Shown piece by piece: positions 37,962 to 38,450 of a DNA stretch of 64,000 nt (position 1 is its first letter; the number at the start of each line of letters is the position of its first letter). Under the pieces are notes generated by a model. That model saw only the letters and a program-made list of their open reading frames with translations. It did not search any database and had not been told where the DNA came from. A program made the position numbers and the translations under genes. Source of the stretch: Escherichia coli (GTDB lineage: Bacteria; Pseudomonadota; Gammaproteobacteria; Enterobacterales; Enterobacteriaceae). The stretch lies in the NCBI RefSeq assembly GCF_003334355.1, contig NZ_QOWP01000002.1, one strand, 5' to 3'.

Positions 37962-38450
37962 ACTGCCGTGAAGTGCGGCACCCCGTAGGTCAGACAAGGC
38001 GGTCACGCCGCATCCGACATCCAACGCCCAAGCCGGTTGCCTGATGCGACGCTGGCGCGTCTTATCAGGCCTACACCGCTGTGAAGTGCTCCACCCCGTA
38101 GGTTGGATAAGGCGGTTACGCCGCATCCGACATCTAACGCCCAAGCCGGTTGCCTGATGCGACGCTGGCGCGTCTTATCAGGCCTACACCGCTGTGAAGT
38201 GCTCCACCCCGTAGGTTGGATAAGGCGGTTACGCCGCATCCGACATCTAACGCCCAAGCCGGTTGCCTGATGCGACGCTGGCGCGTCTTATCAGGCCTAC
38301 ACCGCTGTGAAGTGCTGCACCCCGTAGGTTGGATAAGGCGGTTACGCCGCATCCGACATCTAACGCCCGAGCCGGTTGCCTGATAAGACGCTGGCGCGTC
38401 TTATCAGCATACGCCACATCCCCGGCATACCATGCCGGATGTGGCACATC
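37962..38450. repeat. Tandem REP/BIME array: four ~113-bp units plus a terminal hairpin
   Basis: The motif gtgaagtgc recurs at 37968, 38081, 38194 and 38307 (period 113 bp); each unit holds two REP-type palindromes; units 2 and 3 appear identical. Confidence 0.85.

Follow-up and report, generated by a model that had tools for sequence, protein, structure and literature searches.

REP/BIME arrays have been described since 1984-1991. Among them, BIME-2 elements of the Bachellier/Gilson classification combine z2 and y REPs with linkers of the S and s/l/r classes, which are short and variable in length and sequence, and they occur as tandem copies whose number depends on the strain (PMC3333891). 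In contrast, BIME-1 elements combine z1 and y REPs through an L linker, long and conserved, in which the IHF site is located, and they are found as single copies (PMC3333891; Ton-Hoang et al.). The REPINs associated with RAYT (TnpA-REP) are also inverted REP doublets, of ~100 bp, that can be folded as one long hairpin, and binding by TnpA-REP needs both GTAG and a mismatch in the stem (PMC3333891). Two individual arrays of K-12 are the closest to the one considered here: REP325, located between yjdM and yjdN, from which naRNA4 has been described, and REP161 (its EcoCyc name in MG1655), which occupies the gap between the convergent genes eco and mqo.

We have analysed the eco-mqo gap in a 64-kb stretch of Escherichia coli DNA, which we call the window. 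The array that it contains is an already known, individually catalogued and characterised locus and an ordinary element of its kind; the original prediction, which was made from the sequence, gave neither its BIME class nor its entry in the REP catalogue as REP161. That prediction was correct in its essentials, the terminal hairpin and IHF being the two points that need to be corrected. The features of the region are the following:

37452..37961, plus strand: eco (ecotin) coding sequence, the upstream convergent gene (NCBIfam NF002987, 264 bits; RefSeq annotation of matching genomes)
37964..37980, plus strand: small 6-bp hairpin UGCCGU/GCGGCA in the fold of 37962-38080, beginning 3 nt past the eco stop
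37968..38080, plus strand: unit 1, with a y REP at 37985-38018 that has two stem mismatches and a z2 iREP at 38039-38074
38081..38193, plus strand: unit 2, with a y REP at 38098-38131 (5' GTAG), a 20-nt linker at 38132-38151 and a z2 iREP at 38152-38187 (ends in CTAC)
38194..38306, plus strand: unit 3, equal to unit 2, with a y REP at 38211-38244 and a z2 iREP at 38265-38300; naRNA4 score of 72.7 bits
38307..38407, plus strand: unit 4, terminal, 101 nt in register, with a y REP at 38324-38357 and a z2 variant at 38378-38407
38413..38445, no strand assigned: locus-specific terminal hairpin that folds with a 14-bp stem, a 2-nt CC bulge and a 3-nt loop
38452..40098, minus strand: mqo (malate:quinone oxidoreductase) coding sequence, the downstream convergent gene (NCBIfam NF003603, 1265 bits; RefSeq annotation)

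The ORF ending at 37961 encodes the 169-aa ecotin, for which most RefSeq records place the start at 37473 (489 nt), and the minus-strand ORF ending at 38452 encodes the 548-aa Mqo. The intergenic gap is therefore 37962-38451 (490 bp), and the range first reported as filled by repeats, 37962-38450, is practically all of it. A promoter scan found no sigma-70 promoter in the gap. The gene yojO was considered as a possible repeat-derived ORF in the gap and rejected, as it is located upstream of eco, between napF and eco.

Tandem Repeats Finder described the array as 37968-38407, with a period of 113, 3.9 copies, 96% matches, no indels and a score of 803, and an independent repeat search gave start-to-start spacings of 113, 113 and 113. 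This corroborates the exact 113-bp period that had been claimed, whose absence had been named as the sign of a misreading. The motif GTGAAGTGC on which that claim was based is present at 37968, 38081, 38194 and 38307 on the plus strand, which are its only plus-strand positions in the 64-kb window, and it does not occur on the minus strand anywhere in the window. Units 2 and 3 had been said to be identical and in fact they have no mismatches; 7 positions set unit 1 apart from them, and unit 4 presents 4 differences up to offset 101 and is out of the repeat from offset 102. The small hairpin next to eco is composed of the left flank and a GG specific to unit 1, and 8 of the 10 alleles that we read from E. 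coli had this GG in unit 1.

According to y and z2 pattern searches, each unit contains two REP-type palindromes in opposite orientation, as anticipated, and the order on the plus strand is GTAG-y REP, 20-nt linker, z2-CTAC iREP and 23-nt linker. The y-type REPs (GTAGGTTGGATAAGGCGGTTACGCCGCATCCGAC) at 38098, 38211 and 38324 are within 3 mismatches of the y consensus pattern, and unit 1 carries a more diverged copy at 37985. The z2-type REP GCCTGATGCGACGCTGGCGCGTCTTATCAGGCCTAC is found as an exact match at 38039, 38152 and 38265 on the plus strand, ending in CTAC and opposite to the GTAG-first y REPs. As the expected number of y or z2 REP matches in shuffled sequence was 0, and as the patterns do match, we excluded that the palindromes are something other than y and z2 REPs. 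Typing of the partner REP as z2 relies on a consensus that was cross-checked against REP325 only; the z2 body of the array is also present in REP325, which is described as y + z2. The 23-nt linker, which in unit 2 follows the z2 iREP and continues into unit 3, straddles the unit junction (ACCGCT before it, GTGAAGTGCTCCACCCC after it) and is common to neighbouring units. Each REP folds as its own hairpin, and the minimum-energy fold of unit 1, whose y stem has the two mismatches, is instead one long y:z2 hairpin of the REPIN type.

The combination of a y-type REP with a 5' GTAG, an inverse z2 partner and multiple tandem copies that vary between strains is that of a BIME-2, and the sequence makes it very probable that the array is a BIME-2 element and the four-unit allele of K-12 REP161. 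In the original prediction IHF was listed among the targets of such arrays, and REP elements as a class are often called IHF targets (PMC3333891). A BIME-1 or RIB-type element recruiting IHF would indeed share with this array an intergenic y REP with an inverted Z-class REP. However, IHF binding is a property of BIME-1 (PMC3333891), and the features that define BIME-1 and RIB/RIP elements, namely z1, the long conserved L linker with its IHF site and the single copy, are all missing at eco-mqo: the partner is z2, the units are in tandem, and the linkers are GC-rich, of 20 and 23 nt and without an IHF core, which excludes an L linker. In fact, the core WATCAANNNNTTR does not occur within 37962-38451, its nearest match being at 33211. 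The array is thus not a BIME-1 or IHF-binding RIB element by these features, IHF has to be removed from the list of targets, and we regard this alternative as extremely improbable. RRS elements were also considered, because their length of 222 bp is about twice 113, and were rejected, as they are located near dusC and lysO and the array discussed here is at eco-mqo; RRS are GC-rich repeats with a G-quadruplex that flank the Ter macrodomain and are treated apart from BIME-2 (PMC10592627).

REP161 of MG1655 is the orthologous element of this BIME-2 array, with the same locus, flanks and 113-bp unit; ACTGCC is the 6-nt left pre-sequence of both, and their terminal hairpins are orthologous. They differ in size, REP161 having 6 units in a 714-bp gap and the window 4 units in 490 bp, and unit 2 of REP161 is a duplicate of its unit 1. 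Furthermore, the last z2 of REP161 keeps the GATGCGACGC mismatch, whereas the last z2 of the window is the perfect palindrome GATAAGACGC. This variant consists of a 12-bp palindrome, CTGATAAGACGC/GCGTCTTATCAG, followed by CATAC in place of CCTAC, so that, unlike in REPINs, both the mismatch and the CTAC have been lost. The y REPs of the array keep both the GTAG and the stem mismatch that TnpA-REP binding needs. The pattern also differs from that of REPINs, which are dispersed as single elements and not amplified in tandem in one place as at eco-mqo, and no RAYT gene was seen in the parts of the window examined.

The right-hand end of the array requires a different explanation from the one first given, according to which unit 4 had decayed at its 3' end into a hairpin. 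It is correct that unit 4 leaves the repeat at this end: the last unit finishes in ...CTTATCAG-CATAC and then runs into the hairpin at 38413-38445. However, the same end, ...CTTATCAG-CATACGCCACATCC(CC)GGCATACCATGCCGGATGTGGC..., was shared by all the E. coli alleles read, which had between 1 and 7 units, the single-unit alleles included, and 4,464 genomes each contained the hairpin once, always adjoining mqo. The terminal hairpin is a fixed locus-specific element; it is neither a REP nor a decay product of unit 4, and the single copy per genome also led us to reject that it is another dispersed REP. Its stem starts 6 nt past the mqo stop codon on the mqo strand, and its fold has an energy of -22.6 kcal/mol on the plus strand and -24.0 kcal/mol on the minus strand (z = -4.6 and -2.9). 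It was absent, in its E. coli form, from the E. albertii and E. whittamii loci.

In K-12 the orthologous hairpin is listed as a bidirectional terminator of REP161 (eco:mqo 2305063-2305108; Harris et al. 2026, supplementary terminator table), with an 18-bp perfect stem of -33.4 kcal/mol and just 2 U in each 8-nt flank (Harris et al. 2026), and RNA ends map to it from both directions (Harris et al. 2026). This listing agrees with the 3'-end role for the eco and mqo transcripts that had been proposed. The hairpin of the window is weaker than that of K-12, with 14 bp and a bulge and about -23 kcal/mol, having the CC bulge and lacking the outer 4 bp that K-12 REP161 has. It is not of the intrinsic (Rho-independent) type: the sequences that follow it are GTATGC (mqo strand) and CACATC (eco strand), and no terminator-like site, defined as a GC-rich stem-loop with a U tract, was found in 37300-38700.

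The other array to which the locus can be compared directly is REP325, whose sequence we took from K-12. It also consists of tandem doublets of y and inverted z2, in the same y-to-z2 order on the transcript of the upstream gene and with near-identical REP bodies. However, its period is 100 bp, its linkers of ~13 and 21 nt have an unrelated sequence, and it lies between tandem genes of one operon and not between convergent genes as in eco-mqo. As judged by this comparison, the eco-mqo array is a sister of REP325 and not a copy of it. When compared with the Rfam model RF02564 for naRNA4 (77 positions, threshold of 59.5 bits), units 1-3 matched positions 1-77 on the eco-sense strand with 62.3 (37988-38071), 72.7 (38101-38184 for unit 2) and 72.7 bits, and unit 4, with 57.7 bits, was below the gathering score of 59.5. 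These scores measure sequence and structure similarity to a REP doublet and are not proof of an RNA or of HU binding. They could be taken to mean that nucleoid-associated RNAs of the naRNA4 kind are encoded by the array as a gene cluster, in which eco read-through would be processed to ~80-nt two-hairpin RNAs that bind HU, bridge cruciforms and condense the nucleoid, as has been proposed for REP325. The scores of units 1-3 above the Rfam gathering score, the y-to-z2 order shared by the eco transcript and the yjdM transcript of REP325, and the reported DNA bridging dependent on HU and naRNA4 (Qian et al. 2015) are in line with this. However, the Rfam model was built from one REP325 doublet, so any BIME-2 unit scores with it, and a second array in the window scores higher. 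Moreover, REP325/naRNA4 had no measurable effect on chromosome compaction, REP-REP contacts were absent in Hi-C and REP325 acts locally in its operon (Harris et al. 2026, a preprint that has an author in common with the original naRNA4 work). We therefore find such a gene cluster highly unlikely.

The array also generates open reading frames on both strands. Four overlapping minus-strand ORFs with near-identical N-terminal peptides had been noticed and dismissed as artefactual, and we located them at 37653-38144, 38003-38257, 38134-38352 and 38247-38462; four further ORFs, which had gone unmentioned, cross the array on the plus strand. The presence of four overlapping ORFs on each strand (55-163 aa) might suggest that the repeats encode small proteins, and one RefSeq record (Origami2-DE3) has a "hypothetical protein" that reaches into the array. 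Against this, the period of 113 bp is not divisible by 3 and moves the reading frame by 2 nt from one unit to the next, so that the ORFs span at most about two units, and they come and go with the copy number. The peptides are Arg/Cys/Gly-rich translations of GC-rich palindromes, none of the array ORFs had an NCBIfam family match, and they are unannotated in the four RefSeq records with feature tables extending over the whole gap (UK_Dog_Liverpool, YD786, 2009C-3554 and MG1655). A coding function was rejected given the missing family matches, the frame-shifting period and the lack of annotation, with next to no chance of being correct, and the ORFs were rightly called artefacts.

The number of units was compared across E. 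coli genomes using a flank-only query (500 bp from each of eco and mqo), which matched 5,422 of 5,426 complete genomes and in which the span of the match in each record gives the gap length of that genome. The flanks were at consistent spacing in 5,374 of the 5,426 genomes. For the copy number, 60 genomes were taken at even steps down the match ranking, and their gap lengths fell into discrete classes, 113 bp apart, as follows:

1 unit: 37 of 60 genomes
2 units: 1 of 60 genomes
3 units: 2 of 60 genomes
4 units: 0 of 60 genomes
5 units: 9 of 60 genomes
6 units: 8 of 60 genomes
7 units: 2 of 60 genomes
IS insertion in the gap: 1 of 60 genomes

Alleles of 1, 2, 3, 4, 5, 6 and 7 units were read base by base, K-12 MG1655 having 6 units and E. 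coli B 7. In addition, we made a census of the 5,426 complete genomes with a 47-nt query that has the junction linker between two units at its centre. It found the linker in 2,007 of them, each with 1-11 junctions (median of 5). Exactly 5 junctions were obtained for K-12 strains, as expected for 6 units, and because of this the linker can be considered specific to the eco-mqo locus; the ~63% of the 5,426 genomes without a junction therefore have a single unit. The strain-variable copy number that had been claimed is thus supported at this locus by 1-7 units in the alleles read directly and by 1-11 junctions, and the four-unit allele of the window is a minority form. In the 60 genomes that have the flanks nearest to those of the window, alleles of 6 units predominate (43), followed by those of 4 units (9), and the rest have 2, 3, 5 or 7 units or partial alleles. 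The difference can even be found among near-clonal isolates of one study, with 4 units in EC21Z-078 and -101 and 6 in EC21Z-083 and -097, and a "small expansion of REP161" has been reported between laboratory K-12 derivatives (PMC4982283). Some of these copy-number calls are possibly assembly artefacts, as tandem arrays of 0.5-0.8 kb are easily misassembled and one "complete" genome has obvious indel noise in its array. Two alleles were non-integer (gaps of 649 and 676 bp), and of these ACN002 is a clean 67-bp microhomology deletion and WCHEC035123 looks like long-read assembly indel noise.

Outside E. coli, we scanned a single genome of each species for the unit-specific linker plus GTAG, and the array was found in Escherichia only, with four matches that were all directly downstream of eco:

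E. albertii: ~7 units, with greater divergence among them
E. whittamii: ~2.5 units
Escherichia sp. E1V33: 3 units
Escherichia sp. MOD1-EC7003: 1 unit

The mqo end was located in three of these four, which places the array in the same eco-mqo gap, and was not found in MOD1-EC7003. From this distribution the array at eco-mqo appears to be older than E. coli, provided that it was passed on by descent and not seeded separately in the different lineages.

Regarding its function, the published data come from the 6-unit K-12 array. The BIME-2 at eco>-<mqo, of 654 bp in W3110, contains, by Topo-seq, 11 gyrase cleavage sites with ciprofloxacin (Cfx), 7 with rifampicin plus ciprofloxacin (RifCfx), 2 with microcin B17 (Micro) and 5 with oxolinic acid (Oxo) (Sutormin et al. 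2019, PMC6379681 table DS3). The same table annotates this locus with "Espeli, Boccard 1997: 6 cuts", and 6 cuts in 6-unit K-12 amount to one per unit. Gyrase prefers y REPs, and the BIME-2 sites persist with rifampicin and are transcription-independent (PMC6379681). Hence, gyrase was correctly predicted as a factor acting on the array, given the in vivo cleavage published for the orthologous K-12 locus. The prediction of RAYT-type transposases also fits, as the y REPs keep GTAG and the stem mismatch and RAREFAN predicts that REP161 is RAYT-associated; in the mobilome study that reports this, REP161 was one of the eight REP clusters with exonuclease protection under stress, and circular intermediates were not detected. 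With respect to the RNA, REP325 stabilises the mRNA of its upstream gene and attenuates transcription in a partly Rho-dependent manner, and the presence of REPs in the gap of a convergent pair correlates, genome-wide, with higher expression of both genes (Harris et al. 2026). In general, terminal REPs were without effect on the half-lives of mRNAs (Harris et al. 2026), so any stabiliser role for eco or mqo would be putative and dependent on the context.

All these data lead us to propose that the array probably relieves or insulates supercoiling and that the 3' ends of the two mRNAs are probably set and protected by its hairpins. In the DNA, the y/z2 palindromes would form a cluster of strong, transcription-independent gyrase sites, and gyrase acting there would remove or insulate the positive supercoils that arise between convergent eco and mqo. 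In the RNA, the hairpins, first of all the one proximal to mqo and then those of the REPs, could be 3' barriers to exonucleases in both transcripts, and the same hairpins may work as weak, partly Rho-dependent terminators for eco and mqo that do without a U-tract. The number of units would change in 113-bp steps, probably by slipped-strand events or unequal recombination between the near-identical units, and RAYT (TnpA-REP) might be an extra driver of this change.

The main rival to this functional explanation regards the array as selfish or neutral DNA and nothing else: RAYT or replication slippage would have seeded and amplified a REPIN population that has no host function, and gyrase binding and RNA ends would be incidental by-products of GC-rich palindromes. 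We consider this possible but not likely. Apparently unconstrained copy numbers (1 to at least 7), most genomes having one unit, near-clonal isolates that are two units apart and deletions inside the array are what it would lead one to expect, and the predicted RAYT association of REP161 (RAREFAN) and the GTAG and stem mismatch that TnpA-REP needs, retained in the y REPs, are consistent with it as well. However, at least one unit and the terminal hairpin are kept in essentially all E. coli (flanks in 5,374 of 5,426 genomes, hairpin in 4,464), the array is downstream of eco in four other Escherichia species, in three of which it was located in the same gap, gyrase cleavage at eco-mqo is among the strongest of the BIME-2 loci (PMC6379681), and REP161 gave no circular intermediates in the mobilome study. 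This persistence across Escherichia argues against pure neutrality, although it does not prove a function.

It could even be that the number of units is itself not neutral and works as a heritable, quickly reversible dial, similar to a contingency locus, that tunes the 3'-UTR or the topology. Each y/z2 doublet would then add a gyrase site and an RNA barrier and so set the expression of mqo and/or eco or the local supercoiling. We regard this as rather improbable. The distribution of copies in the even sample has two peaks (~62% with 1 unit and ~28% with 5-6), with 2-4 units being rare (3 of 60), and together with the switch between 4 and 6 units in near-clonal isolates this is a hint of a non-neutral unit number; however, clonal population structure and assembly artefacts could give the same two-peaked picture.

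Finally, the value of this array as a discovery is low, as eco-mqo (REP161) is among the BIME-2 arrays that were used to show gyrase cleavage in vivo, and what it offers is mainly of use for annotation and comparison. The eight ORFs of the array should not be called as genes, the hairpin adjoining mqo should be annotated as an element distinct from the repeats, and the length of the array should be treated as a marker that is strain-variable and sensitive to assembly. In addition, IS621 has natural landing pads in the three ATCAGGCCTAC sites. Should the distribution of copy numbers prove to be selected, and not clonal, the alleles of 1-7 units would be a natural allelic series in which the effects of BIME-2 on convergent transcription and supercoiling could be tested.

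The eco-mqo array carries a target for a mobile element. In E. coli 2017-02-2CC (NZ_AP027764.1, 3794-4774) we have found a copy of IS621, an IS110-family element with a bridge-RNA recombinase, inside the eco-mqo gap and within array unit 1, where it is inserted directly 3' of the CT in ...TTATCAGGCCT|AC. The wild-type IS621 target has been described as ATCAGGCCTAC, with a CT core (PMC11208160), and the occupied site in unit 1 of the 2017-02-2CC array is this published target. In the window, the array has three perfect copies of the target 11-mer, at 38064-38074, 38177-38187 and 38290-38300, and the 11-mer is absent from unit 4 of the window, which reads CAGCATAC.

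Both edges of the array have features of their own. On the eco side, folding predicted a short structure:
37964-37980: 6-bp hairpin (UGCCGU/GCGGCA), 3 nt past the eco stop.
This hairpin is built from the left flank together with a GG at offsets 10-11 that is exclusive to unit 1 and that was found in eight of the ten E. coli alleles read. On the mqo side, GATAAGACGC replaces GATGCGACGC in the last z2 REP (38378-38407), as it also does in several other strains, and this produces a perfect 12-bp palindrome without the stem mismatch; it is followed by CATAC and not by CCTAC. In contrast, the last z2 REP of K-12 REP161 retains the mismatch. Removal of the stem mismatch from a y REP abolished both binding and cleavage by TnpA-REP (Ton-Hoang et al., PMC3333891) and, by analogy, the last z2 REP of the window is probably inert to RAYT.

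Array length was also compared among isolates with near-identical genome sizes that come from one study per set, namely EC21Z-078, -083, -097 and -101 (genome matches H195-H198) and the WCHEC0351xx isolates (H152, H178 and H179), and among these the array differs (four versus six units), which suggests either a change within a clone or a collapse of the array in assembly. Two alleles have a length that is not an integer multiple of 113 bp. That of ACN002 shows a clean 67-bp deletion bounded by CATCC microhomologies, by which the final z2 REP has been lost and the final y REP now abuts the terminal hairpin, the non-REP hairpin beside mqo. That of WCHEC035123 contains numerous small, scattered indels, a pattern typical of an unpolished long-read assembly. 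The K-12 derivative Origami2-DE3 (NZ_CP084529.1, 1082-1675) lacks eco together with most of the array, and rsxD-adjacent repetitive coding sequence is joined straight to the interior of a z2 REP (...GGATCGACCTGTT|ACGCTGGCGCGTCTTATCAGGCCTAC). An annotated 'hypothetical protein' spans this junction, which reflects either a genuine rearrangement or an assembly error.

A second BIME-2 cluster (50206-50401), in the order z2-y-z2-y, occupies the gap of another convergent pair:
49503-50198, plus strand: rcsB, left flank of the cluster.
50398-53247, minus strand: rcsC, right flank of the cluster.
In the window-wide scan this cluster matched the naRNA4 model on the minus strand with 80.4 and 77.5 bits, higher than the eco-mqo units, and its final y REP runs into the stop codon of rcsC (50398-50400). 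The window-wide scans also returned:
17414-17439, plus strand: L25 ribosomal-protein leader.
17831-17864, minus strand: isolated y-type REP.
21155-21228, plus strand: tRNA.
46454-46547, plus strand: MicF sRNA (116.8 bits).

Finally, the same y/z2 array lies immediately 3' of eco in E. albertii NBRC 107761 (9848-10619) and in loci L013, L014 and L015 from other Escherichia species. It spans the eco-mqo gap in three of these four; for L014, no position was found for the mqo end. A terminal hairpin of the E. coli type is absent from the eco-mqo locus of E. albertii and E. whittamii. The E. albertii array has about seven units and, because these are far more divergent from each other than are the units of E. 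coli, they are less homogenised.
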